From NCBI GenBank assembly GCA_048937405.1, contig JBHLNF010000011.1, positions 32,001 to 96,000 of the forward strand: a stretch of DNA of 64,000 bases. The letters run 5' to 3'. This stretch comes from Promethearchaeota archaeon (GTDB lineage Archaea > Asgardarchaeota > Lokiarchaeia > Sigyniarchaeales > SOKP01). The notes under the pieces are model-generated. The model worked only from the letters and a program-made list of their open reading frames with translations. It ran no database searches and had not been told where the DNA came from. The position numbers were made by a program, and so were the translations under genes. Shown one piece after another: positions 779-20,320 of the stretch. Numbering within the stretch: the stretch's first letter is position 1; every line of letters begins with the position of its first letter.

Positions 779-797
779 CTTTTACTTTATTTACTTA

Positions 798-899
798 GGG
801 AAATGACTTTTTCTTTGACCTATCTGACCCAACTGAGATTGATTATTAAATTATCAATTAAATGAAGAAGATCTTGAGTAGTGAGAAAATTCATTTCCC
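798..899 (+). ncRNA. Box C/D guide sRNA, predicted to direct 2'-O-methylation of C34 of tRNA-Leu(CAA)
   Basis: Terminal stem 798-813/885-899; C box variant TTGACCT 815-821; D' CTGA 833-836; internal hairpin about 838-858; C' ATGAAGA 862-868; 12-nt guide AGATCTTGAGTA 869-880; D box variant GTGA 881-884 with compensatory C-G pair; guide is complementary to ACTCAAGATC. Confidence 0.72.
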
Positions 900-986
900 G
901 CTAATTTCATTTCTTAGAAATCCTAAAATTTTAATCAGAGTAATTATAATCCTTAATAAAATTACAGATAATTTATTAGTTGAATA

Positions 987-3176: not shown

Positions 3177-3206
3177 AATGGATTTTTAATTTTAAGTAAT
3201 TAAAGA

Positions 3207-4565
3207 TTAAGTTCCAATGAATTTAATAATTTTATCTTTGATTTCATAATTTGGTAGGATATAATCTGCATAACCTTTTTCTGCAGCGAACTTAGGCATT
3301 GCATACAATATACACGTTTCTTCTGCCTCAGCAATTGTTTTTCCGCCTACTTTTTTAATTGCCCCTAAACCTTCTACTCCATCTGATCCCATCCCGGTTA
3401 GAATTACCCCCATAGCACGATTTCTATAAATTTTTGCTGCCGAAAAAAATAATACATCTATGGAAGGCATACAAAAGTTAACTGGAGTTCCTTTATAAAT
3501 TTTAATTGAAGGTGTTTTATTTTTTACAGAAATTTCCATATGCATATCACCTGGAGCAAGATACACATGTCCTGGTTGAAGAAATTCTCCATTTTTTGCT
3601 ACTTTTATTTTAAGAACACATTCCATATCTAAATTATCTGCAAATGCATCAGTAAAATGAGAAGATAAATGCTGAACAATTAAGATTGGAGCATTAATAC
3701 TTCTTGGAATTTCTTTTAATATTGTTGTGATAGTTCTAGGACCCCCAACACTAGCGCCTATAACAATAATATTTGAAGATATAGTAGATCCTTTGATCGG
3801 TGCAAGATCGAGAGTCCTACCAATTTTTCTCTTTTTGATTGGTGTTGATATTGATTTTTTTTGTAAAGTAGATTTAGCTATTTTCTTTTTTGCCTTTTTT
3901 TCTTCTGTTTCTGATTTGATAATTGGTGGTTTAGTAATTTCTTCTTCTGATACTTCTTCTACCATTTGGATATTTTTTTCATCCTTAAGGATTGCCTTGA
4001 CTTTCATAACCTCAAAGGCATCATGTTCTGGTTTTTCTTCAATTTCTTCAATTGGAGTTAATCTATTAAGATATTGTCCAAAATCGAATATACGATCAAC
4101 CATTTCTTGTCGAAGAGATCTACTTTTTTTCAATATACTCTCTTCTTTCCTGAAAATACGTTTAATCTGGGATTGTGATGCTAACAGTACCTTTGCAAGT
4201 AATTCCTCACGAAATCTTGGTAAATCTTTTGCCCCAATACCTCCAGGTTTTATAATATAATCAAATGCTCCCATCAAAAGTGCTTGAATGGAAGAATCTA
4301 GATTCTTTGGACTTATAGCTGAAAGGATAATTGTAGGCGTGGGATGTTCTTCCATAACTAACTTGAATGCATCTAATCCGTTCATTTTAGGCATTACCAA
4401 ATCTAAGACTAATACATCTGGGCTATGTTTTTTATTAAGTTCTACTGCTTCTTTTCCATCCTTTGCAAAGTCAACAATATTTATCGAATCATGTTCTTTA
4501 AGAATATCTGCAATACTCTTTCTTAAATATTGCGAATCATCCGCTATTAATACATCAATCGTCAA
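3207..4565 (-). CDS. cheB: Chemotaxis response regulator/methylesterase CheB, long-linker copy
   Basis: REC domain (IADDS, VLDLVMP, KP); methylesterase motifs GASVGGP, VQHL, PSIDVLF, LTGMGSDG. Confidence 0.95.
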   Translation of the reverse strand: MTIDVLIADDSQYLRKSIADILKEHDSINIVDFAKDGKEAVELNKKHSPDVLVLDLVMPKMNGLDAFKLVMEEHPTPTIILSAISPKNLDSSIQALLMGAFDYIIKPGGIGAKDLPRFREELLAKVLLASQSQIKRIFRKEESILKKSRSLRQEMVDRIFDFGQYLNRLTPIEEIEEKPEHDAFEVMKVKAILKDEKNIQMVEEVSEEEITKPPIIKSETEEKKAKKKIAKSTLQKKSISTPIKKRKIGRTLDLAPIKGSTISSNIIVIGASVGGPRTITTILKEIPRSINAPILIVQHLSSHFTDAFADNLDMECVLKIKVAKNGEFLQPGHVYLAPGDMHMEISVKNKTPSIKIYKGTPVNFCMPSIDVLFFSAAKIYRNRAMGVILTGMGSDGVEGLGAIKKVGGKTIAEAEETCILYAMPKFAAEKGYADYILPNYEIKDKIIKFIGT

Positions 4566-4639
4566 ATAAATTTCCTATTTGCTATTAATTAAATATTCTA
4601 ATAATTAGTAAAGTAAGAAAATTTATATGTTACTAAAAG

Positions 4640-4807
4640 TTAAAAAGGGATTGCTATAATTGCCCCAACTAATTCATCCTTAAATCCTTCTACTGAAGCT
4701 CGAGTAATTATCAAACCATCCAGATTAACGATTAAGACTGCTAAGAGGTTCTGCGCTTCATTCAATAATTTAGTAAGTAATTCTTCAAGATCAGTTACTT
4801 GAGATAT
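4640..4807 (-). pseudogene. Truncated Roadblock/LC7 (MglB-like) reading frame, 55 aa, ATA start; absent from the ORF track
   Basis: Translates ISQVTDLEELLTKLLNEAQNLLAVLIVNLDGLIITRASVEGFKDELVGAIIAIPF*; helix plus AVLIVNLDGLII hairpin is the roadblock N-terminal half (compare 53061 ORF: AIVNRNGLLISS); in-frame TGA two codons upstream. Confidence 0.7.
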
Positions 4808-4846
4808 TTCTCATTCCCTTTGATAGTGTTTTGTTGCTTCCACATT

Positions 4847-5506
4847 TCACAAATTAAGATCATATTTTAAGTTTAAAATCTCAAAAAGGCTCTTTAAAAT
4901 ACTAACAGAAGGTATAAGACAAATAATTCCTTCCAGATTTATTTCAGATACAGTTATTTTTGTATTTATTATAATCAAGTAATCTGATAATTGTGCATAT
5001 TTGGCAATTATAATATCTAAAATGGCATTTAAAGTATCTATTGCTATTTTTGGAATATTTGGAACCAACTTAATTGATAACATATCTGCTAAGGCATTTG
5101 TATAATGACCAGATAAAATGTTTCCTATTTCACTTATAATACTTAATGAAAATTCATCTAAATCCTCAATAGATTTTAGATCCTCAATCGTAAATCTTTC
5201 AGAATTTGTTAATATATTGATTAAATTAACGATTGATTCTTTGGTAAATATCTGAACAATTGCTAAATCTGATTTAAATTGAATTTCTGAATAGATTCCA
5301 ACCATATCAATTGATGTCTTCTCAAATAATTCAGGAACTTTCCAAAAAGAAACAATATCTATGGATGTTAATGAAACTTCAACCTTATTGTTAAGTAATT
5401 TTGATAGTGCTGTTATTGCATGTCCAGAGCCAATATTGCCAAGTTCTTTTAAAATATCTAGTTGTTCATAGCTTAATTTTATATCCCTTGAATCATTCAT
5501 CTTCAA
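4847..5506 (-). CDS. cheC: CheY-P phosphatase CheC
   Basis: Two D/S-x3-E-x2-N sites (DILKELGNIG, SIISEIGNIL); adjacent to cheD. Confidence 0.93.
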   Translation of the reverse strand: MKMNDSRDIKLSYEQLDILKELGNIGSGHAITALSKLLNNKVEVSLTSIDIVSFWKVPELFEKTSIDMVGIYSEIQFKSDLAIVQIFTKESIVNLINILTNSERFTIEDLKSIEDLDEFSLSIISEIGNILSGHYTNALADMLSIKLVPNIPKIAIDTLNAILDIIIAKYAQLSDYLIIINTKITVSEINLEGIICLIPSVSILKSLFEILNLKYDLNL

Positions 5507-5543
5507 TCATCTCAATTTTATATTCTTTTCATAAAAATCTTTT

Positions 5544-6092
5544 TTATTCACGTAATTTTTTAAATTTTGATTCTTTTGTCGAACTAACATATACAGAGAA
5601 TTCTTTAGTGTTAAACTTTACAACTCTACCTTCAGATCCTCCCGTATTTTCTCCAATAATTTTAATTTGTAATTCCTTCAATTTTTTTTTGATTGCATTA
5701 ATGTTTTCAGTGCCTATTGTATTGCCTTCGATATCAAAAATCTTAGAACCTCCAATTATAATTGCTTTTATATTTTTCTTTATAGCCCCATGTTTTATTA
5801 ATTCTTGAACTAATAATTTTACGGAGAGATCGGCATATTTATGAGGAAATTCAATATTTTTATGAAGTTTAGAATTAGAAAGTAATACATGAGACATTCC
5901 ACCAACTCTTTTGAGGGAGTCAAAAAGTATTAAAGCAATACAAGAACCTAATCCAATTATTGATATTTTTGGATCGAAATTTCTCACTTTATTTGTACTA
6001 TGTACAATTACATAATGCCCTATTGGTAAGGCAATTTCACCATCCTTACCTGTTATTTCAATACGTCCATTTGAATTTATCTTTTCCATCAT
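5544..6092 (-). CDS. cheD: Chemoreceptor glutamine deamidase CheD
   Basis: GLGSCIAL, GGMSHVLL, KYAD, GGSKIF, IGTENI, NTGGSEGR motifs. Confidence 0.93.
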   Translation of the reverse strand: MMEKINSNGRIEITGKDGEIALPIGHYVIVHSTNKVRNFDPKISIIGLGSCIALILFDSLKRVGGMSHVLLSNSKLHKNIEFPHKYADLSVKLLVQELIKHGAIKKNIKAIIIGGSKIFDIEGNTIGTENINAIKKKLKELQIKIIGENTGGSEGRVVKFNTKEFSVYVSSTKESKFKKLRE

Positions 6093-6109
6093 AAAGAATT
6101 GATATACAC

Positions 6110-7267
6110 TTATATTTCATCTTGAGAAATTGAATAATTACTAGCGAATTTTAACATCTGATCTTTAATTTCATAATTTGGAACTATTAATTTAGCAGCT
6201 CCTCTTTTTATGGCTGCTTTGGGCATACCAAAAACCACACAGGTCTGTTCTGATTCTGCAATTGTTTGACCTCCATTTTTTTTAATCGCTTCTAAACCAG
6301 CAGCACCATCCTGTCCCAATCCTGTTAGTAAAATTCCTAAAATTTGACTTTTATATACTTTTGCTGCTGAAAGAAATAACACATCCACCGAAGGCATACA
6401 AAAATTTACAGGTTCTCCATCTACAATCCTAATAAATTGTTGATTATTTCTTTCCACAACCTCCATATGTTTTCCTCCGGGACTAAGATATGTAATACCA
6501 GGAAGAATTTTTTCACCATTTACAGGGATTTTAACTTCAATATTACAGATCTCATTTAATGATTTTGTGAGTTCTTTCATGAAAAATGCATCTAAATGTT
6601 GAACAACTAAAATTGGCATAGGGAAATTTTTTGGAATATCTTTCAAAATTGTTCTTAAGGTTTTTGGTCCACCAGTACTAGTTCCGATTACTATTGCATT
6701 GGATTTAAATCTCGCTTTAGGTATTGGTTTCTTTTTTGGAATTTTTTCAATCTTCGTTTTTGGTTTTTTAGTTATTTGATATTCGGCACTATCTATAGTA
6801 GAATCAAAAGTTTTCTTAATTGATTTTTTTATTAATAAATTTCTTTTTTCATAAGTCTTTTTAATTTTACTAGCATAAAGCGTACTTAAAATTAATTTTT
6901 CTTTTAATTTGGGGAATTCTTTTTTCCATACTCCTTTTGGTTTCACAATAAAATCAAATGCTCCCAAAAGTAACGCTTGAACAGAATCATCTAATGTTTC
7001 TGGAGATTTAGATGTAAATATTATTGTAGGTATAGGATAATGTTCTGAAAGAAATTTAAAGACAGTTATTCCATCTACTTCAGGCATCATTAAATCCAAA
7101 ATTAGTACATCTGGATTAATAGTCTCAATTTTTTCAATTACTTCTCTTCCATTTATTGCAATATCTACTTTAGCTATTTCATCGCTTGATAATAACATAT
7201 TAGTGACTAATTTTCTCTGAAATGTTGAATCTTCTGCTAGTAACACTTTAATTGGTACTATAATCAC
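6110..7267 (-). CDS. cheB: Chemotaxis response regulator/methylesterase CheB, second copy
   Basis: REC (AEDS, ILDLMMP); GTSTGGP, VQHL, PSVDVLF, LTGLGQDG. Confidence 0.95.
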   Translation of the reverse strand: MIIVPIKVLLAEDSTFQRKLVTNMLLSSDEIAKVDIAINGREVIEKIETINPDVLILDLMMPEVDGITVFKFLSEHYPIPTIIFTSKSPETLDDSVQALLLGAFDFIVKPKGVWKKEFPKLKEKLILSTLYASKIKKTYEKRNLLIKKSIKKTFDSTIDSAEYQITKKPKTKIEKIPKKKPIPKARFKSNAIVIGTSTGGPKTLRTILKDIPKNFPMPILVVQHLDAFFMKELTKSLNEICNIEVKIPVNGEKILPGITYLSPGGKHMEVVERNNQQFIRIVDGEPVNFCMPSVDVLFLSAAKVYKSQILGILLTGLGQDGAAGLEAIKKNGGQTIAESEQTCVVFGMPKAAIKRGAAKLIVPNYEIKDQMLKFASNYSISQDEI

Positions 7268-7393
7268 CTTTTTTTAAATATTTTCGACAACTAATTTAAT
7301 TGAAACCAGTTATTTTCATCGATAAGTGAATCAGAAAATTATGATAATTCAATTCAAATCGAATATCATTATTAGGTCTCAATTTTAAACACT

Positions 7394-7945
7394 TTATTTT
7401 TCTAATAATTTTTCAATTTCAGCAAAACGTTGTTGAATATGAGTAATTGAATAAGTTATATGAGCTTGAATTTCCTTAATCTCAGAGAGGATTTTTCTAA
7501 TGCGAGATTTGACTGTTTTAGATAATTCTTTACCATCTCCCATTATTTCAGATTCCAAACTTTGTTCTGAGGATAAGTTTGCCCCATATATAGAAGACGC
7601 TTGAGTTTGAATTACATATCTAGATTGTCCTGGATATTGTAAGTTAGAATTTTGTTCTTTAATTTCTTTGAATATTATATGAAACTCTGAGGGTTCAAGA
7701 CCTTCTTTAATAACTTCATATTTAAAATTATAAAATTTTTTTTTTGTTTTAAGTTTTCCAGCAAAATTAGCTGCCATGTAACGATGGAATAATCGAGAAT
7801 GACTACCTGCCCAAATCCAAATTAGTTTTAATTCTTTGTCTACAATTAAATATACACTATTAGGATCAAAAATCTTCTCTGGTCTTAATTTTAGTGTTTC
7901 ACCTTGCACTTCGTAAATGTAATCGTAATAACCGCTTTTTAACAT
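7394..7945 (-). CDS. Single gelsolin-homology domain protein with C-terminal helical/coiled-coil segment
   Basis: FDPNSVYLIVD..LIWIWAG....LFHRYMAANFA...YEVIKEGLEPSEF fits the gelsolin/villin repeat consensus (vyild..iyvWiG...A..v.EG.Ep.eF). Confidence 0.8.
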   Translation of the reverse strand: MLKSGYYDYIYEVQGETLKLRPEKIFDPNSVYLIVDKELKLIWIWAGSHSRLFHRYMAANFAGKLKTKKKFYNFKYEVIKEGLEPSEFHIIFKEIKEQNSNLQYPGQSRYVIQTQASSIYGANLSSEQSLESEIMGDGKELSKTVKSRIRKILSEIKEIQAHITYSITHIQQRFAEIEKLLEK

Positions 7946-8029
7946 GACATTTCAGTAGATATTGGTTTTGTTGATATATTAAGACTTATTATAAATTTGG
8001 GTTTTTATATTTATTTTAGAAAATTTTAT

Positions 8030-8041
8030 AAAAAAAAAAAA
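8030..8041 (-). terminator. Oligo-U (T12 on minus strand) archaeal-type terminator after the CheW-CheC-CheC gene
   Basis: A12 run about 28 nt beyond the stop codon at 8069. Confidence 0.4.
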
Positions 8042-8068
8042 TAATTGTTTGATAGCTAGTAATAGATT

Positions 8069-10054
8069 TTAAGAATAAAACCTTAAAAGTGCCTCCAATA
8101 ATTCTTGCAGTGTTTCTAAGTTAGGGATAAATAAAAAAGTTCCAGTGACTTTTATATCTGTTATTATTACATTAGTAGTAATTACCAGTGATAATTTTTT
8201 AAGTAAACCAATTTCTTCTTTTAAAATTTTAAATAATTGACGTCCAGTATCTACACTCATATCTGGAGGTTCTGTCATTAATCTTATACCTAGTAGATCT
8301 CCAATAGCACTTACATAATGGCTACCCAATATATGCCCTAGTTCTGATATTGCACTATGATATAATTCAGGAAAATCGGATGCTTTATTTAACTTTTTTC
8401 TTAAATCGATTTGTTTTTTGTCATAATCATCCACTATTATAGAAGTTATATCTATAGCATCTTTCAAATTAAATAAAGTAAGTACCGTAGCTCTTGTTTT
8501 ACCAATTACATTACTCCAAGCAACCAAAAGTTTCTCATTTTTATTACTAATAGAATTCGCATATTCATCTAATTCAACCATCTCGACTGAGGGAATATTT
8601 ATATCTACTCGTTTATTAATCATCTGAGCTAAGGCATTAGCGGCATTTCCTGCACCAATATTTCCGACTTCTTGTAATGCATCTCTTTGTACTTCTGTAA
8701 GTTTTATCTTATCGAGATTAGGGACTTTTGATACTCTCTTTGTTGTCATTGTCTTGACAGCTATATCATGTTCAATTCCTAATCTGTTGAAAAATATCTT
8801 TAAGGTTTCGAGATCAGGAATAAAGAAGAACATACCGGTCAATTTCAAATCTGCTACTTTTATTGAAGTTTTTATTATTATAAAATATTGAGCAATAGAT
8901 TTTAATTCTTGAGAAAGAAATTCTCCGATTTCTCCGGCTTCGCTCATTGTAAATTCAGGAATATCAATCATCATTTTTGTTTCTAGTAAATCAGCTAAGG
9001 CTGAAGCATAATGTCCAGCCATGATATTACCCATCTCTACAATAGTAGAAACTGCAAAATCATCAAGATCCTTTTTAGATTTCACAGATTTAGGATCGAT
9101 TTTAGATTGATTCCCAGCTAAATCCGCAATCAATTTCATTAATGGGTGCATTTCAAAAATATTTAATATAGTTGCTTGAGAAGGTTTATCTATATGACAA
9201 AATATCCCACATACCTTTTCCTTATGTCCTCCAAATTGTTTTGGTAATTCATTTAAGGGTATAATACCTACATCTGTGAGAGAAACATCAATTTTCTTTT
9301 TAACTAATCTTGATAAGGCTGTAACCGCATTACCCGTTCCAATATTACCAAGTTCTTTAAGAATATCTTGCTGTTCCTCTGATAAAGATATTTGTTGAGG
9401 TTTTTTTTCTTCTGGAATTTTTGTTAATTTCATTTCGGACGATATGTTTTGAGGGATTACAACAGTTGATTCAATTGTAGGCTCTATTTTTGGTTTAGAT
9501 TTCAATTTAGGTTGTACTTTAGCACGTTCAAGGACTTTAGGCTTTAATTCTTGCTTCTTATCCGTTTTTTTTCCACTACCTTGTAGATACGGTTGGATTA
9601 AGGCATCTAAATCTAATAATATTAGTGCTTCATCCTGAAAAATTCCTGTTAATTTTATCAATCTAAAATCAATATTAGTTTTAACGATAGTACCCTGCTT
9701 TTTAAAGATTGAAAGGGGAATATCTCTAACACCAATTACAGCATCGACTAATAAAGCAATCTTCAAATCCTCATATTCTAATAGTAAAATTCGTGATGTA
9801 TTAGTGAATCCATAATCAATATCAATATCAGATATATTATGTCTTAAAGAGATAATCGAATAAATTTCTCCTCTTATATTAATAATTCCAACAAGAGATT
9901 TTTCTGCTAGTGGAACAGGAATGATATTTTCTCCTGGAACATATATTTCCTTTACATTTTCAACTTCTATAAGATATCTCTCATCAAGAACTTGAATAAT
10001 CACTACATTTAAAGTATCATTAAATTCCTCATTTTTAGCGTTTATTTCTAACAT
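8069..10054 (-). CDS. CheW-CheC-CheC fusion protein
   Basis: N-terminal CheW (PVPLAEKSLVGIINIRGEI, ALLVDAVIG), K/P-rich linker, then two CheC units (DILKELGNIG/STIVEMGNIM; DALQEVGNIG/SAISELGHIL). Confidence 0.9.
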   Translation of the reverse strand: MLEINAKNEEFNDTLNVVIIQVLDERYLIEVENVKEIYVPGENIIPVPLAEKSLVGIINIRGEIYSIISLRHNISDIDIDYGFTNTSRILLLEYEDLKIALLVDAVIGVRDIPLSIFKKQGTIVKTNIDFRLIKLTGIFQDEALILLDLDALIQPYLQGSGKKTDKKQELKPKVLERAKVQPKLKSKPKIEPTIESTVVIPQNISSEMKLTKIPEEKKPQQISLSEEQQDILKELGNIGTGNAVTALSRLVKKKIDVSLTDVGIIPLNELPKQFGGHKEKVCGIFCHIDKPSQATILNIFEMHPLMKLIADLAGNQSKIDPKSVKSKKDLDDFAVSTIVEMGNIMAGHYASALADLLETKMMIDIPEFTMSEAGEIGEFLSQELKSIAQYFIIIKTSIKVADLKLTGMFFFIPDLETLKIFFNRLGIEHDIAVKTMTTKRVSKVPNLDKIKLTEVQRDALQEVGNIGAGNAANALAQMINKRVDINIPSVEMVELDEYANSISNKNEKLLVAWSNVIGKTRATVLTLFNLKDAIDITSIIVDDYDKKQIDLRKKLNKASDFPELYHSAISELGHILGSHYVSAIGDLLGIRLMTEPPDMSVDTGRQLFKILKEEIGLLKKLSLVITTNVIITDIKVTGTFLFIPNLETLQELLEALLRFYS

Positions 10055-10100
10055 TTTATTTACCTTTTTATTTCTCCTTTTTAATAAATAACTTTGATTT

Positions 10101-10976
10101 TCATTTTAACATAATCCCTTTCCAAATTAATTCTAATTCAGGTTCATCTTCGTTTACTTCTGTAAAAAAATCTACTTGTCTATGTACTGATATTTGCCCA
10201 CCTTTAGAATATTTAAATACATAATTTAACATATCATCTGTATTAGTAAAGTTAAAACCCGCAAGTTTTAATTCAGCATCATTAATAATAATTAAATCTT
10301 CTCTATTAAAAGGACGGTTTTCTTCAATCCATTCAATCCATATCTCTGAATTAAGTTCTTTATTGATAATTTTTATTGATTTATCAATTGGTATATTGCG
10401 GAATGATTTACCTACAGCAAATATGATTTTATCAGGAATTAAATTTTCATTCTTTGCAAATTCATTTATCTTAGCTATTGCTTTATTATAACTATCAATA
10501 TCTAAAACATCATAACATAGAGTTAAAATCACTTCATTTTCTTCAGTTTCAAGAATAAAATCAATTAATAAGTCTGGATTAAGATCTGCGTTAACTTTTA
10601 TCGTTTTGATATTTACGTCTGGTATATATTTAAGATATTGATAAAATCGCCACTTAATGCTTAATTTATCACTTTTTTCCCTGCTAATAAAAATTTGAAA
10701 CATTAATTTTAACTGTTCTATAGTCATTTTTGATAAATTAGCTAGTTTTTCCACATCTTTTCCTAGTTCGACATAATTAATTTTTGATTTTGCATTTGAA
10801 GTTTTTTTTCCAGAAAAATCTTCTAAAAAAATCTTTAATTCATTTTCAGTGAATTGGGGTAGTACTTGTTCAATAAGATATAATAAATATTCTTTTGATT
10901 TGTCATCCATCATTTCATAATACTGTAATTTCATATTATTTCCTCCTAAATTTTTCTTAATTGTTTTTTTATCCAA
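10101..10976 (-). CDS. Hypothetical protein in the che operon
   Basis: 291-aa ORF overlapping the upstream gene by 8 nt; no motif recognised. Confidence 0.7.
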   Translation of the reverse strand: MDKKTIKKNLGGNNMKLQYYEMMDDKSKEYLLYLIEQVLPQFTENELKIFLEDFSGKKTSNAKSKINYVELGKDVEKLANLSKMTIEQLKLMFQIFISREKSDKLSIKWRFYQYLKYIPDVNIKTIKVNADLNPDLLIDFILETEENEVILTLCYDVLDIDSYNKAIAKINEFAKNENLIPDKIIFAVGKSFRNIPIDKSIKIINKELNSEIWIEWIEENRPFNREDLIIINDAELKLAGFNFTNTDDMLNYVFKYSKGGQISVHRQVDFFTEVNEDEPELELIWKGIMLK

Positions 10977-12996
10977 CGAAAAATGATTCTAACTCTGAAA
11001 ATTTTTTATCCTTTCCTGTTATGCTTTTTAGATAATACATTATCTCTCTTTCTTGGTAAGGTAAAAGAGTATCAATTGTGAAAGATATCTTTTGTTCACT
11101 ATTTTTCTTTGATTTACTCAGTTTATATTCTATATTTGAGGATATCATTTCAAAAGACCCTGGAAAAGAATCTGTAATATTAACATCATTCAATTTCATA
11201 TTTGAACCATTTTTTGCAGTAATATATATAGCAAATTCATTAGCATTCCTTCCTGGATAAATTTGTTTTCCAACAATTACTTTACGTCTCTTATGAGAAA
11301 TTCTTATTTTAGATTTATCTGTTTTAGATATCTCATCCGAGATCATAAAATATTCTTTTATATAACGATTTTTATATTTTGAATAAAATGTATAAACTCT
11401 AAGTGGGAAAATATAATCTTTTTTATAATCTGGGTTGACTGCTTTGATAGGATATTTCAATTCCAAGAAATCATCCACAGCAATAATTGATTCCAAAGGA
11501 CTTTTCTTTAAATTGATATTTAATTCAATCGTATGCTCATGAGATGAATCTTCATCATCAGGTTTTAGATTCATCTCAATATCCTCAATATCTAATTTAC
11601 CCGACGATTTGGATAATACAAATTCAGAAATATCTCTTGGAGGTAAAAAGTTTTCAGGGATTTTTTCAATAATTTGAAGACCGTTGATTGGAAGTGATCC
11701 TTGATTATTAATAATTATTTGTGAATGTATTAATGTTTCTTCAAATGATTTAACCTCTTCTTCTGATAATTTCTTTTTTATTGACGAATAAGCAACTTTA
11801 AAGAAATTGTCATCGAATCTAGAAGTAATCATTGAATTCTTCTCAGTTTCGTAACCAACTGTATATCCTACTTTTCTTGAAAAGATTGGCTCCTTCTCAT
11901 CAGTAACATAAAAATAATCTGATTTATATTTACCATGTGGATTAATTACTTTTTTACGTAATACTGATCTATCTAATTCTAGGATTTTGTTTTTTTTTGT
12001 CTTATCAAATATTGTTATAGAGTTTAATTTTAATGTAAAATCACTAAGGTTTTCGAATCTAAGAGAACATTTCCAATTATTAGGTTCATGAATTTTCTCT
12101 GTTTTCTTAATGGCATGCATTGCGTGTGAATATGCTGAGAAATGATCGACTCTTACACCTGATATTACTTTCTTTGATAAATTAAAGGTTACTTCAATGT
12201 TTCCTGTGTTGATATTTTCCTTCTTCTTAGGAAATATTTTCGCATAGATAATAATTTCAGCACTTTCTCCTGGATTTAAATCTTTTAATTGGCTCTCGAT
12301 AGAATTTCTTAAAATTTTAAATTCATTACTTTTATTGCTTTCAAACTCAAAATCATAAAAAGCTGGTACGAACGATTTTTTAAACTTAACATTATCAATT
12401 TTTGTGTTTGAAATGTTAATAATATAAATTGTAAATTTAATTGTATTTTCTTTTCCCCATAAAAGTAAATAATGTTTAGTAGGATTTTTTTTCGAGGATT
12501 CTATTTCATTTAACTCCATATCTTCAAAACTACTTTTAAAGAACCCAATATCTTCACTAAGATTTTCAATACTTTCGTTAACTTCTATTAAATCTGGTAA
12601 ATCTTCAGAATTTACAATTTCATATTTCAATACTTTATTTGAATTAGGCTCAAAGACACCTAAATTAAGATTATTTTCTGCTTTTTGATTATCAAATTGT
12701 GAACCAGAGAATTGTAAATTTGCATCCCAAATTCTATCTTTAACAGAATTATTAAAAATTGAAATATTCCCATTCCCTATAACTGATTTTCTTGTTCTAT
12801 CGTTTTGATAATGATATTCCAAGAATTCTTCATTCAATATTAATACTTCTGATGCAGTACCCATATAACTTGATTCAATTTTTTGTTCTCTATGATTTTT
12901 TTGGATAAGTTTACCGCCTTCCCTGATGGGGATACCAAGAAAATTTGGGCTTATTTTTGTTTTTAATTCGTCAAGATCAATTTTTTTAAAACCCAT
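10969..12996 (-). CDS. Cytoplasmic multi-beta-sandwich (DUF11/Ig-like repeat) protein
   Basis: Recurring I.I.N....I.....D/E.lP..F and I..L.P.E...I.Y motifs (IIINNQGSLPINGLQIIEKIPENF; ITAKNGSNMKLNDVNITDSFPGSF...IDTLLPYQEREIMY); no signal peptide or TM segment. Confidence 0.55.
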   Translation of the reverse strand: MGFKKIDLDELKTKISPNFLGIPIREGGKLIQKNHREQKIESSYMGTASEVLILNEEFLEYHYQNDRTRKSVIGNGNISIFNNSVKDRIWDANLQFSGSQFDNQKAENNLNLGVFEPNSNKVLKYEIVNSEDLPDLIEVNESIENLSEDIGFFKSSFEDMELNEIESSKKNPTKHYLLLWGKENTIKFTIYIINISNTKIDNVKFKKSFVPAFYDFEFESNKSNEFKILRNSIESQLKDLNPGESAEIIIYAKIFPKKKENINTGNIEVTFNLSKKVISGVRVDHFSAYSHAMHAIKKTEKIHEPNNWKCSLRFENLSDFTLKLNSITIFDKTKKNKILELDRSVLRKKVINPHGKYKSDYFYVTDEKEPIFSRKVGYTVGYETEKNSMITSRFDDNFFKVAYSSIKKKLSEEEVKSFEETLIHSQIIINNQGSLPINGLQIIEKIPENFLPPRDISEFVLSKSSGKLDIEDIEMNLKPDDEDSSHEHTIELNINLKKSPLESIIAVDDFLELKYPIKAVNPDYKKDYIFPLRVYTFYSKYKNRYIKEYFMISDEISKTDKSKIRISHKRRKVIVGKQIYPGRNANEFAIYITAKNGSNMKLNDVNITDSFPGSFEMISSNIEYKLSKSKKNSEQKISFTIDTLLPYQEREIMYYLKSITGKDKKFSELESFFVG

Positions 12997-13049
12997 TGCT
13001 TATTTCCTCTAAATTTTTCTTTTTGTGATATATTTATTATTTTAAAAAA

Positions 13050-15122
13050 TTAATTTAAATTAGTAATTATATTTTCTTCTGTTTTAGAGCTAATAATACT
13101 TAAAACATCAAGTATTAAACAAATTGTTCCTTCACCTGTAATTGTAGAGCCTAATATCTCGCGAGAATCAGAATAATTGGATTTAAAAGGTTTTACAACT
13201 ACATCCAGTTGTTGAAGTTGTTTATCGGCAACAAATATAGCTGAATTATCTTCATCCTTTTGACACCATATTGCAATTTTCTTATGAGAATTTGGAGTGC
13301 TTTCAGATCCCATGTTTAGATATTCATTTAAATGAATTAAAGGTATTGTATTTGAATCTATTTTATAATATTGTTCTCCGTCAATATATTCAACTTGGTT
13401 AGGATTGAAAAAATAAATTTGTTTAATATTTTCAGTTGGAATCGCAAATAAATCATCTGCTATTTGGATTAATTGTGCTCTTAAAATTGCCCTTGTAAAG
13501 GGTACGTCTATAGTAAATTTAGTACCTATGTCTTTTTCTGAATGGATTCTTAAATTACCACCTAAATCCTTAATTTTTTCAGCTACAATAGCTAAGCCCA
13601 TACCTCTTCCTGAAATAATATCCGCATCTCCTAATGTAGAAAAGCCGGGTAAAAGAATATAGTGGTGAAGATCTTCTTTTGTTAATTGTTGTGCTTCCTC
13701 GGAGTTATAATAACCTTTGCTTATAACTTTTGCTCTTATTTTATCATAATTAATTCCAGCACCATCATCTTGAATTTCTATGAAAATTGAGCCTGCCCTT
13801 CTGTATGTTTTTAGTTTTAAAACACCAAGTTCATTCTTCCCTTTTTTTTTCCGATTCTTAGGTAATTCAATTCCATGATAAATTGCATTTCTAATTAAAT
13901 GGACTAATGGAGAATTAATTTCTTCTAAGATTTTTCTATCAATTTCAACATTAGTTCCCTCTAGAATAAGCCTAATTTTTTTCCCAGTTTCATTTGCAAC
14001 ATCTCGGACTAATCGTTTATACTTTCTAAATGTTGATTCAACCCTTACTAGTTTTAATTTGAACAGAATTTCTTGAATATCCAAGAAGGGTTTATCCATT
14101 TGATCAATTAACCTTATTATTGTTCTGTCTTCTTTTTCCTTTAAAAGTTGACTAATATGATTTTTCATTATTACGAGTTCTCCGAAGTAATTCATGAGTT
14201 CCTCTAGATATTCAATGTTAACTTTAACACTCATGATTTTTATGTTTTGATCCGAATAACTACCTACAATCCGGGAAACACTCTCTACTTCTTCAATATC
14301 AGCTTCTTCATCAAAATCCTCAATAAGTATTTCCTCACTCATAGATTTTGACTTTTCAAGTTCCCATTTTTCTTTAAGATCATCTATAGTCTTACTAAAT
14401 TCTTCAGATTTTATTGGAGTGATTACTATACTTTCAATTTCAAGAATTTCATCTAAAATCTGAAAAAGATTATCTTTGGTAGTCTGAGTGATGTAAAAGA
14501 TTTCAAACTCACTTCTAATTGTAGCTTTTTCTAGCTCTTCAGGAGTAGGATTAGTCCAACATATTTTACCATTTTCATTTAATGCTCTAAATATTATGAA
14601 TAATCTTACTTTTTTAAAAACACAAGTTTCTTCAAGACGAATATAAATCTTAAATGATTTATTTTTATTTTGACTTAATAATTTTGTAATTTCATCTGAT
14701 TCTAAAGGTTGAATAAAAGTAATACTATAATCCGTTTCAAAAGTATCAAAGCTATTTTTTATATCTTCAACGAAATTTGCATCAAGATCATTCATATTTC
14801 CAGTTTTTACTCGCTTTAAAATATTTCTTAACACATCTAGACTCTCAAATAACATATCTATGAAATTTCCTTGTTTGGTTTTAGAAACATTATTATCTTT
14901 AGCATTATCTAAAAAAGATTCAAAATGATGGCAAAACTTAGACAAATTCTCAAAACCTGCCATAGCAGTTAATCCTTTTAATGTATGAAATGTAAAGAAT
15001 AGTTCTTTAATTGGTTTAGGATTATCTGGATTTTCTTCTAAAGCAAGAATTTCTTCTTCAGTCTTTTGAATTAAATCCTCTGCTTCACTTATGAAAAGCT
15101 TTATATCGTCATCAGATGACAC
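13050..15122 (-). CDS. cheA: Chemotaxis histidine kinase CheA
   Basis: Hpt FHTLKG, P2 region, dimerisation domain, HLIRNAIYHG, DDGAGI, GFST, SGRGMGL, C-terminal CheW-like P5. Confidence 0.97.
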   Translation of the reverse strand: MSSDDDIKLFISEAEDLIQKTEEEILALEENPDNPKPIKELFFTFHTLKGLTAMAGFENLSKFCHHFESFLDNAKDNNVSKTKQGNFIDMLFESLDVLRNILKRVKTGNMNDLDANFVEDIKNSFDTFETDYSITFIQPLESDEITKLLSQNKNKSFKIYIRLEETCVFKKVRLFIIFRALNENGKICWTNPTPEELEKATIRSEFEIFYITQTTKDNLFQILDEILEIESIVITPIKSEEFSKTIDDLKEKWELEKSKSMSEEILIEDFDEEADIEEVESVSRIVGSYSDQNIKIMSVKVNIEYLEELMNYFGELVIMKNHISQLLKEKEDRTIIRLIDQMDKPFLDIQEILFKLKLVRVESTFRKYKRLVRDVANETGKKIRLILEGTNVEIDRKILEEINSPLVHLIRNAIYHGIELPKNRKKKGKNELGVLKLKTYRRAGSIFIEIQDDGAGINYDKIRAKVISKGYYNSEEAQQLTKEDLHHYILLPGFSTLGDADIISGRGMGLAIVAEKIKDLGGNLRIHSEKDIGTKFTIDVPFTRAILRAQLIQIADDLFAIPTENIKQIYFFNPNQVEYIDGEQYYKIDSNTIPLIHLNEYLNMGSESTPNSHKKIAIWCQKDEDNSAIFVADKQLQQLDVVVKPFKSNYSDSREILGSTITGEGTICLILDVLSIISSKTEENIITNLN

Positions 15123-15151
15123 ATAATCACCTTAATTCCTCTTTATTATAA

Positions 15152-15550
15152 TTATTTCTTCTCTACTGGTTTATTTTTAAGTATTCGGTCCATGACCTCT
15201 AATATTTGCTCGGTCTTGAAGGGCTTTTGTATAAAGTCTTTTGCCCCTTTCTTCGCTGCTTCAAGAACTAAAGCTTCCTGACCTAGCGCAGAAACTACTA
15301 TAATTACTGCTTTCGGGTTTATTTTTAAAATCTCCTCTGTTGCTTCAATACCACCCTTTTCTGGCATTACTAAATCCATGGTTACTAAATCAGGATTTAA
15401 TTTCTTATATAGGGAGATTGCTTCTACACCATTCGAAGCTTCGCCTACAACCTCAATTTGTTCGATTTTATTAATTATGTTTTTCAACATATTCCGGGTG
15501 AATTGTGCGTCATCTACTATTAGGACCTTTTTTTTATTATTCTTTGACAT
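15152..15550 (-). CDS. cheY: Chemotaxis response regulator CheY
   Basis: Stand-alone REC (IVDDAQF, TMDLVMP, SALG, FIQKPF) between cheW and cheA. Confidence 0.93.
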   Translation of the reverse strand: MSKNNKKKVLIVDDAQFTRNMLKNIINKIEQIEVVGEASNGVEAISLYKKLNPDLVTMDLVMPEKGGIEATEEILKINPKAVIIVVSALGQEALVLEAAKKGAKDFIQKPFKTEQILEVMDRILKNKPVEKK

Positions 15551-15577
15551 TTTATCAACTCCTATTTTTATTTAAGT

Positions 15578-16111
15578 TTAGGTTGATGCCGATAAATCTT
15601 TCTGGATTTTGAGTTTATCTACATCACTAAAAATCTTACTTAAATCAAGCAATATCCTTGGTCTTTCTTCAAATTTAATAATTCCCTTGATATATTCCAT
15701 TGCAACACTGGTCTGAAATATTGGACTCAATCCTATTATTTCAGCTGGTTTTATATGATCAATACTAAGGATAGAATCTGAATAAAAACCGATTAAATCA
15801 TTATCTATTTTTAGAATTATTATAAATTTTTTATTAGTTTTTGAATCTTGCTTAAATGAAGAACGCCTTGATTGATACAATTCTGAGTTAGTTAATTCTA
15901 ATTTTTTCGTCAGGTTAATTACATGAATAATTTCTCCTCTATAATTGTAAATGCCATCTATATAATCCACACTTTTGGGTAGTTTTCTAACTAAACCTGC
16001 TTGAATTATCTCCTTTACATCATATAAATCTATACAGAACTCTTCCCATCCAATTTGAAAGGATAGGATAGAAACTTGATTCAGTCCTTCATAATTTTGT
16101 TTTTGGCTCAT
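15578..16111 (-). CDS. cheW: Chemotaxis coupling protein CheW
   Basis: SFQIGWEEFCID..VKEII, LPKSVDYIDGIYNYRGEII, IKGIIK...ILLDL. Confidence 0.92.
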   Translation of the reverse strand: MSQKQNYEGLNQVSILSFQIGWEEFCIDLYDVKEIIQAGLVRKLPKSVDYIDGIYNYRGEIIHVINLTKKLELTNSELYQSRRSSFKQDSKTNKKFIIILKIDNDLIGFYSDSILSIDHIKPAEIIGLSPIFQTSVAMEYIKGIIKFEERPRILLDLSKIFSDVDKLKIQKDLSAST

Positions 16112-16129
16112 TTTTTTATAACCTATTTT

Positions 16130-16948
16130 TTATATTATAAAATATTGATTAATTTTTTTTTCAAATTCGTTAAATGGAGTAACATCTCCATTAAAATCTT
16201 TTATATAATCGCGGAAATCGAAGATAAATTCGTCCGCGATAAGATACATATACCTTTGAAGTAATGAATTCATATTTTCAACCAAGAAAGCAAAGATAAC
16301 ATTACTTTTTGATATTACATAAAATTGTTGGTTCCCAAAATTAATTTCCTTAAGCTTTGCTCCCGTTTCCTCACCAATTATCGTATTTGAAAATGACAAT
16401 AAAGCGGATATAAATCCACCTATGTGAACTTCGTGCTCGGCTATATTTGATCGATTTTTATTAATTTTAGATACAAATGGACTTCCTGTAGAACCTATAA
16501 TGAATATTGCAATAACACCATCAGATTTTGGAATTTCAATCTCAGATTTAAAAACATTTTTTATTTCTGATAAAGGAGCATTAGAGAGAATTTGTTTATT
16601 TATTTTTTTCGACAAAAAATATAATTTTGGATAATTAACTGGAACATTTGGTTCTTTTTCTTCCATATACACTATAACAGAAATATTTTTTTCTCCATTT
16701 CTAAAATATTGTATATAAATTGTAAAATCCTCTAATGGAATAATTGAGTTTCCCTGCCTTTTATCAACAATTTCATTTTTATATAACTCAAAAATATTTT
16801 GAATTAACGATACTCCAATGCCCTTCTGAAAAACTACATTGAGCTTTCCACCATTCTCGAGGTCTGAAATGTCCAATAGACCATAACCGAGCATATGTAA
16901 TTTTTCAATTGGTTTACTTGAATTTCGATTTGTATCCATAGCGATCAT
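16130..16948 (-). CDS. Longin-domain protein, possibly with tandem longin-like domains
   Basis: C-terminal IAIFIIGSTGSPFVS...HIGGFISALLSFS...LKEINFG...IFAFLV...IADEF...F.FEKKI is the Asgard longin (sybindin/sigma-adaptin/Mon1-like) pattern. Confidence 0.75.
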   Translation of the reverse strand: MIAMDTNRNSSKPIEKLHMLGYGLLDISDLENGGKLNVVFQKGIGVSLIQNIFELYKNEIVDKRQGNSIIPLEDFTIYIQYFRNGEKNISVIVYMEEKEPNVPVNYPKLYFLSKKINKQILSNAPLSEIKNVFKSEIEIPKSDGVIAIFIIGSTGSPFVSKINKNRSNIAEHEVHIGGFISALLSFSNTIIGEETGAKLKEINFGNQQFYVISKSNVIFAFLVENMNSLLQRYMYLIADEFIFDFRDYIKDFNGDVTPFNEFEKKINQYFII

Positions 16949-17420
16949 ATTAGAGTCATATTTAGATTTTTGTGGAACTTCTGTTTAAATGGACTAATTT
17001 TAGAAATCTTTTCGAATAAATTAATTCGTGTTGTAAAAAATTAATTATTCAAAGATTTTTTTATATTCTCTACTTTGCTTTGAACTAAAAAAAATATAAT
17101 AAAAAGGATTTATAAAATTTCGTTTAACAAAAAATGTGATAAGAAGAAAAAAAACAAAATAATAGGATGTTGGGTTAAATATGTTAAAAAGTTTTAGTAT
17201 GATAAATATTTAAATACTTTGAATAAATTACATAAATAGTAATATTTTGAATGCCAAAATATATAATTTTAAAATAGTTTTGCATCCAAAAAAAGGGTTT
17301 TACATACATACTATATTATTTTATAGTTGTCTTTAAGTGGTATTATAAATAGTGTATAGAATATTTTTAAAATTGAAAATATGTTTAATTTAAACTACTC
17401 TAAAATTAAGGAGTATAAAA

Positions 17421-18065
17421 ATGAATGCTCAAGAGGACCTAAATCAGGGAAATGAAATCTATTTACATGAGATTAATATTCGATGCCCACAATGCTCATC
17501 CAATAAGAATTTGAAGATACCAAAAAAAGTCATCGATCAAAGCAAACAGTTGACTACAATCTCAATTCCTTCAAATTTATGTTGCGAACATAGTTTTCAA
17601 GCTTTTGTGGATAAAAACTTTATTGTTAGAGGCTATCAAAAAGTAGATTTTGAATTCTCACATATGGAATTTTATGAAAGTGGTGATGATACTTCTGATA
17701 CCCTTGAATTTACTTCTTTACCAGTTTTTCAGAATATAATCCAATTATTAAGAGATTGTGTAGATGATAATGAAATAATAGGGTCAGGAATCTTTACCGA
17801 TGAGGGAAAAGTATTATATTCTTCTTTACCGCAAACTACTTTATTCAATACAATTAAAGAATTTGAAGTTCGAAATCAGAAGAACCTAATTAGTGTAAAA
17901 AAAATGTATCTCGAATTAGAGAATAACGAGAAGTTTATCTCGAATGTTTTTTCTTTTAATGGAAATAAATTTAATTTGGTCTTAATGTTTGCTTTTAGAG
18001 TAAAATTTGGGATGGGCAACCTTCACATGCGTGATCTCTTAAAAAAGATAAAAAAAATTCATTGA
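17421..18065 (+). CDS. Zn-ribbon plus roadblock/profilin-like domain protein
   Basis: CPQC...CCEHSFQAFVDKNFIVRGYQ N-terminal metal-binding module; C-terminal IIGSGIFTDEGKVLYSSLP hairpin. Confidence 0.6.
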   Translation: MNAQEDLNQGNEIYLHEINIRCPQCSSNKNLKIPKKVIDQSKQLTTISIPSNLCCEHSFQAFVDKNFIVRGYQKVDFEFSHMEFYESGDDTSDTLEFTSLPVFQNIIQLLRDCVDDNEIIGSGIFTDEGKVLYSSLPQTTLFNTIKEFEVRNQKNLISVKKMYLELENNEKFISNVFSFNGNKFNLVLMFAFRVKFGMGNLHMRDLLKKIKKIH

Positions 18066-18436: not shown

Positions 18437-18706
18437 ATGAGAAAAATCTCAATGATAACAAATGAAGATGAAATTAATAAAAAAATTAAGCTAACCAGCA
18501 AGATCTTAAGTAATGTTCATGAAATATTGGAATTATTTAAACCACTTCTAATTAAAATGATTAATATGCCAGAGGCTGAAGATTATAAAAAAAATGGAAA
18601 TTTTTTAAGAGCTGCATCATTATTTAGTAAAATCTCTGATTTATGTGAAGAGATTGAAACCATTTCCTTTTGTTCAGTAGATTTTCTTAAAAGCCTAGGT
18701 AACTAA
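18437..18706 (+). CDS. Small hypothetical helical protein
   Basis: 89-aa ATG-started ORF in otherwise non-coding AT-rich DNA. Confidence 0.55.
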   Translation: MRKISMITNEDEINKKIKLTSKILSNVHEILELFKPLLIKMINMPEAEDYKKNGNFLRAASLFSKISDLCEEIETISFCSVDFLKSLGN

Positions 18707-18805
18707 ACTTATTGCTAAATCTATTTATCTTCTTTTAAAGAAAAGGTTTATAAAATAAAGATTCACCTTTTTATCGAAATATCGTAATTTGAAAGGTTTC
18801 AAGAG

Positions 18806-18876
18806 TGCGCCCGCCGGGAATTGAACCCGGGACGCTGGCTTGGGAAGCCAGCATATTACCACTATACTACGAGCGC
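18806..18876 (-). tRNA. tRNA-Gly(CCC), no intron, CCA not encoded
   Basis: GCGCTCG/CGGGCGC acceptor stem, TAGTATAGTGGTAA D region, CTGGC-TTCCCAA-GCCAG anticodon arm, GGTTCAATTCC T arm. Confidence 0.95.
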
Positions 18877-19201: not shown

Positions 19202-20320
19202 ATGAGAAATGAAGAATTATTAAGAAATTCAGAGGAAAAATATAAGTTAATTTTAGATAATGCTAATGACTTAATTACAATTTTAAATGATAAATTAGAG
19301 CATGAATATATTAATGAGAAAGCAGTTTTTGAATGTTTGGGCTATTTAAGAGAAGATCTAATTGGAAAATCCGCACTTATTAACATTCATCCAGACGATG
19401 TGAAAATCGCCACTAAAACTATAAGGAATTTATTTAAATATGGGGAAAGTAGAAATGAAATGAGACTGAAGCATAAAGATGGACATTATCTTTGGTTTGA
19501 ACATAAAGGGAAAAAATTCATTGATACAGAGGGAACAGCTAAAGCAATAATAATTTCCCGAGATATAACTGAACGCAAGAAGGCTGAAAGTATTCAACTT
19601 GAAGAATATAAAAAATTAGAAGAATTAAGTCAAATAAAAAGTGAATTAATAATGAAAGCATCTCATGAACTCAAAACTCCATTGAACTCTGTTTATGCCG
19701 CATCGCAGCTTCTTTTAAGAAATTTCAAAAATAAATTTGAAGAGAATGAATTGAATTTTCTTGAAATTATATATAGAGGAAGTCAAAAATTAAGACTTTT
19801 GATTGATAATCTGCTTGACATATCTAAATTAGAATCAGATGAATTGAAACTGGACTTGAAAGATGAGGATCTTGTTGAATTAATAAAAGATTGCGTTAAC
19901 GATTTAAAACTTAGAGCGGATAAAAAAAAGCTTAATATTAAAGTTAATTTACCTGAAAAATGTATTTTGTGTATTGATAGAATTAGATTAGAGCAAGTGA
20001 TAATTAATCTGTTATCTAATGCAATAAAATATACACCTTCTGAGGGAGCTATTTTTATAAATTTAAATGACAAAAAAGAAAACATAGAATTCTCAGTTAA
20101 AGATACTGGGATTGGAATTACAAAGAAAGAAAAAGGACAATTGTTTAAAAAGTTTGGTAAAATCAATAGAATTAATTATTATTCTGATATTAGTACTGAA
20201 GGAGCTGGTTTGGGGTTATATATTTCTAAAGAAATTGTTGAACTTCATAAGGGTAAAATAATTGTACAATCTCAAGGTAGAAATAAAGGATCAACTTTTA
20301 TAATTAGTTTCCCTAAATAA
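19202..20320 (+). CDS. Cytoplasmic PAS-domain sensor histidine kinase
   Basis: PAS/PAC (IHPDD, RLKHKDGHYLW, SRDITERK), ASHELKTPL, NLLSNAIKY, DTGIG, GAGLGL. Confidence 0.93.
   Translation: MRNEELLRNSEEKYKLILDNANDLITILNDKLEHEYINEKAVFECLGYLREDLIGKSALINIHPDDVKIATKTIRNLFKYGESRNEMRLKHKDGHYLWFEHKGKKFIDTEGTAKAIIISRDITERKKAESIQLEEYKKLEELSQIKSELIMKASHELKTPLNSVYAASQLLLRNFKNKFEENELNFLEIIYRGSQKLRLLIDNLLDISKLESDELKLDLKDEDLVELIKDCVNDLKLRADKKKLNIKVNLPEKCILCIDRIRLEQVIINLLSNAIKYTPSEGAIFINLNDKKENIEFSVKDTGIGITKKEKGQLFKKFGKINRINYYSDISTEGAGLGLYISKEIVELHKGKIIVQSQGRNKGSTFIISFPK

Follow-up and report, generated by a model that had tools for sequence, protein, structure and literature searches.

In the CheF/ArlCDE systems of Halobacterium and Haloferax (PMC7534055, PMC9126983), MCP receptors operate with CheA, CheW, a canonical CheY, CheB, CheD, CheC, and CheR. 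In the Frz-MglA/MglB system of Myxococcus xanthus (PMC3441718, PMC10329633), a Che-type pathway is combined with a Ras-like GTPase and Roadblock/longin regulators, and the motility is surface-based, not rotary. Among Asgard archaea, che genes were reported in 27 of 97 metagenome-assembled genomes, and “Candidatus Lokiarchaeum ossiferum” carries che genes, 15 MCPs, and putative chemoreceptor arrays (PMC9834061). A 2026 study reported that the crawling of a Lokiarchaeon depends on Lokiactin, that its protrusions are filled with Lokiactin, and that gelsolins coprecipitate with Lokiactin; chemotaxis is not mentioned there (PMC13716822). These reports raise two questions, namely how Lokiactin crawling is steered and what role che systems play where there is no archaellum. 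Here, we describe a che operon in a 64-kb stretch of DNA (hereafter, the window) from a Promethearchaeota archaeon of the class Lokiarchaeia (GCA_048937405.1, contig JBHLNF010000011.1, contig positions 32,001 to 96,000; coordinates below are positions in the window). In this operon type, the che core is inherited and lost as one unit together with four soluble proteins particular to the lineage: a tandem-longin protein, an Ig-like protein, an orphan, and a gelsolin-domain protein. We tentatively read the operon as a Lokiarchaeia-specific chemosensory pathway with an output to actin or cell polarity, which we regard as possible but short of probable. Our literature search found no paper on gelsolin, longin, or GTPase genes within Asgard che operons, and the L. 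ossiferum papers (PMC9834061, PMC13716822) draw no tie between such genes and che genes.

The host genome comprises 4.47 Mb in 29 contigs (100% complete, 5.7% contamination, G + C ∼28%). The names carried by homologues of its proteins (Promethearchaeota, Lokiarchaeia) likewise point to a Loki-type Asgard archaeon. According to the list of open reading frames (ORFs), the che operon is an unbroken minus-strand run from position 16948 down to 3207. Its intergenic gaps measure 17 to 126 nucleotides (nt), which suggests cotranscription, except for a single gap of 281 nt. This run had been proposed in an initial annotation made from the letters of the window, and it is real: every che call was verified by Pfam, and the genes are tightly spaced on one strand. 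Twelve of them are intact, and the sole broken one is a Roadblock-GTPase remnant. In order, the run consists of:

16130..16948, minus strand: tandem-longin protein of 272 amino acids (aa), first in the run and 18 nt ahead of cheW, assigned from an AlphaFold2 (AF2) model and structure comparison
15578..16111, minus strand: CheW (Pfam CheW, E 8e-23)
15152..15550, minus strand: CheY, a single receiver domain (Pfam Response_reg, E 6e-28)
13050..15122, minus strand: CheA with Hpt, P2, dimerization, HATPase, and CheW domains (five Pfam domains above cut-off)
10969..12996, minus strand: Ig-like protein of 675 aa, soluble, with beta-sandwich repeats (DUF11, DUF7507)
10101..10934, minus strand: orphan, 277 aa from a conserved Met (start from the alignment, fold from an AF2 model; alternative ORF start at 10976)
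8069..10054, minus strand: CheW-CheC-CheC fusion (Pfam CheW, E 2e-19; CheC, E 5e-37)
7394..7945, minus strand: gelsolin-domain protein, 183 aa (PDB sequence matches)
6110..7267, minus strand: CheB, receiver plus methylesterase (Pfam, E 8.5e-60)
5544..6092, minus strand: CheD (Pfam, E 1e-22)
4847..5506, minus strand: CheC (Pfam, E 7e-19)
4649..4807, minus strand: pseudogene remnant of a Roadblock + Ras-like GTPase gene, ∼53 codons (tblastn)
3207..4565, minus strand: second CheB, with a long Lys-rich linker (Pfam, E 2.8e-60)

We assessed conservation of this arrangement with tblastn, searching proteins of the window against three sets of loci. In the comparison collection, the host's genus is represented by 53 species genomes; class-wide counts refer to 160 genomes, and counts outside the class to 239 genomes from the phylum's other classes. 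The core order longin-CheW-CheY-CheA-Ig-orphan-CheW/CheC/CheC-gelsolin recurs in ∼20 loci at 40% to 60% protein identity, drawn from seven genera of the host's family and from two further families of its class. Gene order held across so many loci at these identities is far beyond chance. In 12 loci around gelsolin orthologues, the full order, with CheR and the Roadblock-GTPase as optional members, was held throughout the genus. Another six genera of the family contributed eight loci, all of which retained the core and seven the longin gene; their downstream genes were shuffled, with the GTPase gene within the cluster in four and, in two of these, directly 3′ of the gelsolin gene. The core order through gelsolin was also found in two other families (G043, G059), and in G043 the operon is preceded by an MCP gene and followed by a CheR gene. 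Synteny, which the initial annotation had named as a check on its reading, is therefore borne out, with the gelsolin and longin genes remaining beside che genes across genera and families. The longin gene was syntenic in 16 of the 18 loci extending upstream of cheW, and all 15 genomes with a gelsolin orthologue hold the che operon, whereas the remaining 45 genomes covered by the same search had no such orthologue. CheA orthologues of at least 48% identity were present in ∼45 of the 160 class genomes and track those with the orphan.

Two kinds of rearrangement illustrate how these genes travel together. In G006, a closed genome, the operon lies in two pieces ∼1.1 Mb apart, of which one runs from longin to orphan and the other reads CheW-CheC-CheC-gelsolin-CheR-CheB-CheD-CheC-GTPase-CheB, so that the gelsolin gene remains beside the CheW-CheC-CheC gene. 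Within the genus, several independent deletions have removed the che operon from one and the same EF-2-flanked site, leaving one fused CheA′-′CheB scar, two variants with only the longin gene and a CheB tail, and one total loss; the gelsolin gene is gone in these variants. The split loci and the deletion scars are located as follows:

L025 (G006:C1 1429431-1448982): one of the two sites of the split operon in G006; other site at G006:C1 356076-361099
L033 6126-7569: che deletion scar, genome of the genus
L034 8324-8623: che deletion scar, genome of the genus
L036 3542-3712: che deletion scar, genome of the genus
L037 8320-8547: che deletion scar, genome of the genus

These deletions raise the question of whether the window's own operon still signals. 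It may be a decaying relic on its way out, from which CheR and the GTPase have already gone and in which signaling has ended, in keeping with the remnant at 4649-4807 and with the deletions, partial or complete, that struck this locus independently in four or more genomes of the genus. However, the 12 remaining genes are intact, two cheR and 11 MCP genes persist elsewhere in the genome, and in a comparison of seven genes with the nearest relative, another genome without the GTPase gene, the ratios of nonsynonymous to synonymous substitution rates (dN/dS) are 0.06 to 0.23. We therefore find a relic hardly credible. Within this range, CheY and CheW lie at 0.06 to 0.07, longin at 0.08, gelsolin at 0.12, the orphan at 0.15, and the Ig-like protein at 0.23, so that the non-che operon genes are under purifying selection, at values not far above those of CheY and CheW.

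Judged from its residues and domains, the Che phosphorelay is complete and canonical. The Hpt, P2, dimerization, HATPase, and CheW domains of CheA all exceed their Pfam cut-offs. In CheY, the canonical phospho-acceptor and switch residues D13, D14, D59, S87, F106, and K109 are invariant among nine orthologues of 68% to 94% identity. CheC retains both active-site motifs, and three of the four D/S-x3-E-x2-N motifs of the CheW-CheC-CheC fusion are intact, the fourth being ELGH. In the host genome cheR lies outside the cluster; in some relatives it is found between the gelsolin gene and cheB. In its components and its canonical CheY, the host therefore resembles Halobacterium and Haloferax.

The resemblance ends at the motor. 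Unlike in those genera, CheF (PF04283) had no match in the host genome, and neither did archaellin (PF01917), ArlCDE (PF04659), or the ArlJ/PilC platform protein (T2SSF, PF00482), although the same searches were positive in control archaea. These components are also almost wholly absent across the class: CheF was found in 1 of the 160 genomes and archaellin, above its Pfam cut-off, in 1 of 160. The archaellin-positive genome (G055) is closed, measures 6.0 Mb, and is probably that of L. ossiferum, for which an ordered archaellum locus has been described (PMC13705601). The full archaellum with CheF that the initial annotation had set against its own reading was thus not seen. In further contrast to the haloarchaeal systems, the host operon holds four to five lineage-specific non-che genes as well as the CheW-CheC-CheC fusion.

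A filament may nevertheless have escaped detection by being too divergent or scattered, in which case the operon would serve ordinary taxis and the eukaryote-like genes would be conserved neighbors with no signaling role. A lone 730-aa T2SSE-like ATPase (57.8 bits) is encoded at 8192-10384 of L038 (G000:C7:38000-56000), with small unannotatable ORFs and zinc-ribbon proteins as its neighbors, and an A24 prepilin-peptidase-like gene lies ∼20 kb away on the same contig 7 (G000:C7:66500-66832). Such scattering of type-IV-filament components has been reported in Asgard genomes (PMC13705601). Against this stand the missing platform protein, archaellin, ArlCDE, and CheF, given the positive controls, and the strictness with which the gelsolin gene is inherited and lost together with che genes, which is hard to explain for a mere neighbor. 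We consider this account very unlikely. A type IV pilus as the output was considered; with only the ATPase and the A24 peptidase found and no platform protein, it is retained solely as part of this low-probability alternative.

The candidate target for the pathway is actin, and the gelsolin-domain protein would be the operon member likeliest to contact it. In the host genome, we count five genes of the actin family and, besides the operon's own, at least four gelsolin genes. The initial annotation had called the 183-aa protein a gelsolin; the Pfam Gelsolin model scores it at 13.2 bits, under the cut-off of 21, while its significant PDB matches are exclusively gelsolin/villin (E 3e-5 to 5e-3), led by the Asgard ProGel structure 7c2f (E 3.6e-5) and followed by 2DGel and villin. 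The call thus has support from PDB sequence matches and falls short in Pfam. Asgard gelsolins are represented by ProGel, 1DGel, and 2DGel (PDB 7c2f, 7c2h, 7whf; Akil et al. 2020, cited in PMC9834061), with which the operon protein appears to share a gelsolin-homology domain of ∼90 residues and which are its best PDB matches (E 3.6e-5 to 1e-4). It differs from them in being divergent enough to be missed by the Gelsolin model that finds the host's other gelsolin genes, in its restriction to che operons, and in its added parts. In the alignment, a conserved YPGQSR motif and then a variable linker follow the domain (residues 1-98), and the protein ends in a conserved amphipathic or coiled-coil helix (146-183). 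The operon protein may bind actin.

The protein at the head of the operon is predicted to have a longin fold. Pfam and PDB searches with the single sequence and a profile gave no significant match, but its AF2 model (predicted local distance difference test score, pLDDT, of 81; 28-row alignment) contains two beta-beta-alpha-beta-beta-beta-alpha-alpha units. The C-terminal unit (144-272) aligns with the Sec22b longin domain over 122 residues (Z 13.8, root-mean-square deviation 2.6) and also matches TRAPP (Z 12.7), Fuzzy (Z 12.0), VAMP7, and Ykt6 (Z 12 to 13.8 overall). The N-terminal unit (19-138) aligns with longin domains of Lst4 (Z 11.1) and of a Lokiarchaeota protein (Z 10.5). The longin call of the initial annotation is accordingly upheld, with the predicted topology occurring twice. 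For the whole model, the best Foldseek matches are Fuzzy, Inturned, Mon1, and Ccz1. The operon protein has the tandem longin topology in common with these four and with TRAPP, Lst4, and Nprl2; in contrast to the tri-longin Rab guanine nucleotide exchange factor (GEF) subunits, it has two longin domains instead of three and no detectable sequence similarity apart from Fuz_longin_1, found below threshold in two distant orthologues (E 5e-5 and 0.013). Its family comprises 179 proteins, all from Asgard archaea. Comparisons with hhalign of longin with Roadblock-GTPase and of longin with the Zn-ribbon protein (below), made with shallow family alignments, gave probabilities under 1%.

A Roadblock-GTPase once accompanied the longin protein in this operon. 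What the initial annotation had called a roadblock fragment is a true remnant (4649-4807) of a Roadblock + Ras GTPase gene that is whole in most relatives. It preserves the first ∼53 codons of that 319-aa gene, lacks an ATG, is ended by a deletion, and shows 53% identity over 53 residues to the relatives' intact gene (tblastn); a 41-aa ORF (4640-4765) overlaps it. In most relatives, the intact gene is flanked by cheC and the last cheB and encodes an N-terminal Roadblock-like domain followed by a Ras-family G domain (Pfam Ras, 3e-39; Robl_LC7, 0.003, under its cut-off). An orthologue is found on the che contig in at least 25 relatives, whereas the two closest relatives also lack the cluster gene. 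We found no orthologue of it elsewhere in the host genome, which holds ∼60 Ras-like GTPases and five Roadblock-GTPase paralogues of ∼30% identity. The GTPase polarity that the initial annotation had offered as an output therefore cannot be obligatory in the host, since its cluster GTPase is dead. Asgard Roadblock/longin-GTPase fusions are known, and GTPase genes generally lie outside operons with such regulators (PMC10933270). A sister clade of the che-linked GTPase, longer at ∼440 aa by virtue of an extra domain, is encoded away from the operon, in che-positive and che-negative genomes alike (G003:C9:148211-149134, G024:C30:100022-100927, and others).

Longin and GTPase together admit another account of the output, namely a non-motility process such as membrane remodeling or trafficking, cell-cell contact, or development, reached via longin and small GTPases, with gelsolin as one effector or a passenger. 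The likeness of the tandem-longin protein to the GEF subunits Mon1, Ccz1, and Fuzzy, the dedicated Roadblock-Ras GTPase of most relatives, and the host's many Ras-like GTPases all fit this account. Many bacterial Che-like systems drive non-motility outputs, which likewise counts in its favor. It sits less well with the loss of the GTPase in the host while the remaining genes stay under purifying selection, and with the full adaptation set (two CheB, CheD, CheC, and CheR), which is typical of taxis. On balance, we doubt it.

Deeper than either the longin or the gelsolin gene lies the pair formed by the Ig-like protein and the orphan, which is the deepest che-associated non-che element. A second, divergent che operon occurs in two genomes of other Lokiarchaeial families with a CheA only 26% to 28% identical to that of the host; it has the Ig-like and orphan genes and no longin or gelsolin gene:

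L040 (G053:C67) 4853-16430: second operon type, CheY-CheB-CheA-CheD-Ig-like-orphan-like-CheW-CheC-CheC-CheR
L041 (G038:C212) 27-7872: second operon type, same order

The pair is likewise kept in G060, where longin and gelsolin are absent. The second operon type, with only this pair, implies that one operon lineage acquired the gelsolin, longin, and GTPase genes later. The orphan is single-copy in 46 to 47 of the 160 class genomes, absent from all 239 genomes of the phylum's other classes, and rare overall, with 59 representatives in a library of 1.84 billion proteins.

As to the nature of the pair, DUF11 was found in 10 of 10 Ig-like orthologues, which supports the original Ig-like call, and DUF7507 in 5 of 10. 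The protein has no hydrophobic or membrane segment. Its profile matched nothing significantly in the PDB, the best hit being an archaeal bundling protein (E 0.26). The orphan ORF spans 291 aa, and the conserved Met is its most likely start. Neither Pfam nor the PDB gave it a significant match, whether searched with the single sequence or with a profile. Its AF2 model (pLDDT 90.9) begins with a helical region, continues with a PD-(D/E)XK-like domain in the center, and ends in a conserved beta domain, in which the invariant residues sit. Structure comparison returned AF1548 (Z 8.2), Card1 (Z 8.1), and NucS (Z 7.4); the ESM Atlas model is poor, and its neighbors are weak PD-(D/E)XK-like matches. 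We considered a nuclease on account of this PD-(D/E)XK-like fold (Z 7 to 8), yet dropped the reading because the catalytic D...(D/E)xK motif is not conserved in the family alignments.

The position of this pair suggests a further account, in which the four non-che proteins would build, anchor, or partition a chemoreceptor array particular to the lineage, for instance by tying it to actin filaments or lodging it in protrusions, and CheY-P (phosphorylated CheY) would have its output elsewhere. The Ig-like and orphan genes lie between cheA and the CheW-CheC-CheC gene and are kept in the second operon type; the CheW fusion hints at array-localized functions, and the coiled-coil tail of the gelsolin-domain protein would fit tethering. 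Conversely, homology to known array-positioning systems is absent, the lack of gelsolin and longin in the second operon type shows that both are unneeded for building an array, and CheY is left without a target. An array role is, in our estimation, unlikely.

We return to an output to actin or cell polarity, for which a mechanism can be outlined. By homology, MCP receptors couple via CheW to the five-domain CheA, which phosphorylates the canonical CheY, and the two CheB proteins, CheD, CheC, the CheW-CheC-CheC fusion, and the two CheR proteins encoded elsewhere provide adaptation and signal termination. The co-inherited non-che proteins may form an adaptor and output layer in place of CheF. 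CheY-P, on its own or by way of the Ig/orphan pair, would then change how active the gelsolin-domain protein is on Lokiactin filaments or where it sits on them; of the operon's products, this protein is the likeliest to touch Lokiactin. In genomes with the GTPase, CheY-P might also act on the longin/Roadblock-GTPase switch. The effect would be biased protrusion dynamics or cell polarity, comparable to the action of Frz on MglA/MglB in Myxococcus. The narrower proposal that in archaellum-less Lokiarchaeia CheY-P from the arrays acts on the operon gelsolin, and in most relatives also on the longin/Roadblock-Ras GTPase, and so steers Lokiactin protrusion or crawling, we consider quite unlikely as stated.

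The comparison with Myxococcus has its limits. The GTPase of the Asgard operon is fused to Roadblock and lies inside the che operon, whereas the Myxococcus genes occupy separate loci; the Myxococcus motors (type IV pili and Agl-Glt) are absent in the host, where actin is the candidate target; and the host's cluster GTPase, unlike MglA, is a dead remnant. The Asgard side of the comparison is drawn from gene linkage in relatives.

Several observations weigh against an actin or polarity output. The gelsolin call depends on an E value of ∼4e-5, beneath the Pfam cut-off, and the death of the cluster GTPase in the host and its two close relatives marks that protein as dispensable. The repeated independent deletions indicate that the whole che operon is dispensable as well. 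The deepest che-linked proteins, Ig-like and orphan, are neither cytoskeletal nor eukaryotic-signature proteins, as the second operon type and G060 demonstrate. L. ossiferum, a crawling species, lacks this operon type, having no gelsolin orthologue and no orphan, and has an archaellum (PMC13705601). The T2SSE-like ATPase and A24 peptidase leave room for a very divergent filament. Finally, binding of CheY or actin by the four operon proteins is something that we infer. A four-chain complex prediction of CheY with longin, orphan, and gelsolin scored 0.00, a value obtained without controls that speaks neither for nor against binding. Of the rewiring to actin or GTPase polarity put forward in the initial annotation, the linkage and the lack of a detectable motor stand, and the step from CheY-P to actin or a GTPase would have to be added to them.

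L. ossiferum (probably G055) is the closest described organism in which these systems meet. It belongs to the same class and has che genes, an actin/gelsolin/profilin cytoskeleton, and Lokiactin-dependent crawling. It differs from the host in its divergent CheA (25% to 32% identity), its archaellum locus, and the absence of both the orphan and a che-linked gelsolin.

The operon represents a variant of the chemosensory system with an interesting, unproven mechanism. It supplies small soluble candidates that are co-inherited with the che core, namely a gelsolin-domain protein, a tandem-longin protein, two orphans, and, in most relatives, a Roadblock-Ras GTPase, and such concrete small proteins make the question of a link from sensing to the cytoskeleton testable. 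If the actin/GTPase link is true, a sensory pathway of bacterial type was connected to cytoskeletal regulators of eukaryote type before eukaryogenesis. If the steering of crawling is true, the operon encodes a prokaryotic chemotaxis-to-actin pathway, a counterpart of amoeboid chemotaxis. Should the actin/GTPase link prove false, the Ig-like/orphan pair would nevertheless count as a new core part of a chemosensory system, one specific to the class.

Next to the operon lies a divergently oriented gene whose membership in the system is doubtful:

17421..18065, plus strand: divergent Zn-ribbon protein, 214 aa (CxxC...CC.H pattern)

The initial annotation had grouped this gene with the che genes as a Zn-roadblock protein. 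The zinc-ribbon pattern (CxxC...CC.H) is present, but a dedicated che membership was rejected: the family has 12 copies in the host genome and occurs in 154 of the 160 class genomes, and the orthologue at this locus is retained in all che-deletion variants. A multi-copy family that outlives che deletion makes the gene a loose associate at most. Related copies border the che operon in other genera. Searches of Pfam and the PDB with the protein, its profile, and its paralogues returned no match, Roadblock included; hhalign against the Roadblock-GTPase with shallow alignments gave a probability under 1%, and ESM Atlas returned unnamed Asgard clusters only. Judging from its relatives, the protein belongs to a general longin/GTPase world and is not a dedicated che component. 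Among its paralogues in L054 (G000:C17:162574-163293), L052 (G000:C10:60892-61650), and L053 (G000:C20:51837-52646), one fuses the Zn ribbon to a Ras-family GTPase, and in two the C-terminal domain stands behind a longin-like domain. Such fusions point to domain shuffling within the Asgard GTPase-regulator repertoire.

Downstream of the Zn-ribbon gene follow an 89-aa orphan (18437-18706, plus strand), a tRNA-Gly(CCC) gene (18805-18876, minus strand), and a PAS-HisKA-HATPase kinase gene (19202-20320, plus strand). The synteny of the 89-aa orphan and the kinase is held genus-wide, even at che-deleted loci. In one relative, the downstream part of the che cluster (L044, G087:C3) carries at 3700-4068 an extra CheY, 63% identical, between cheC and cheB.

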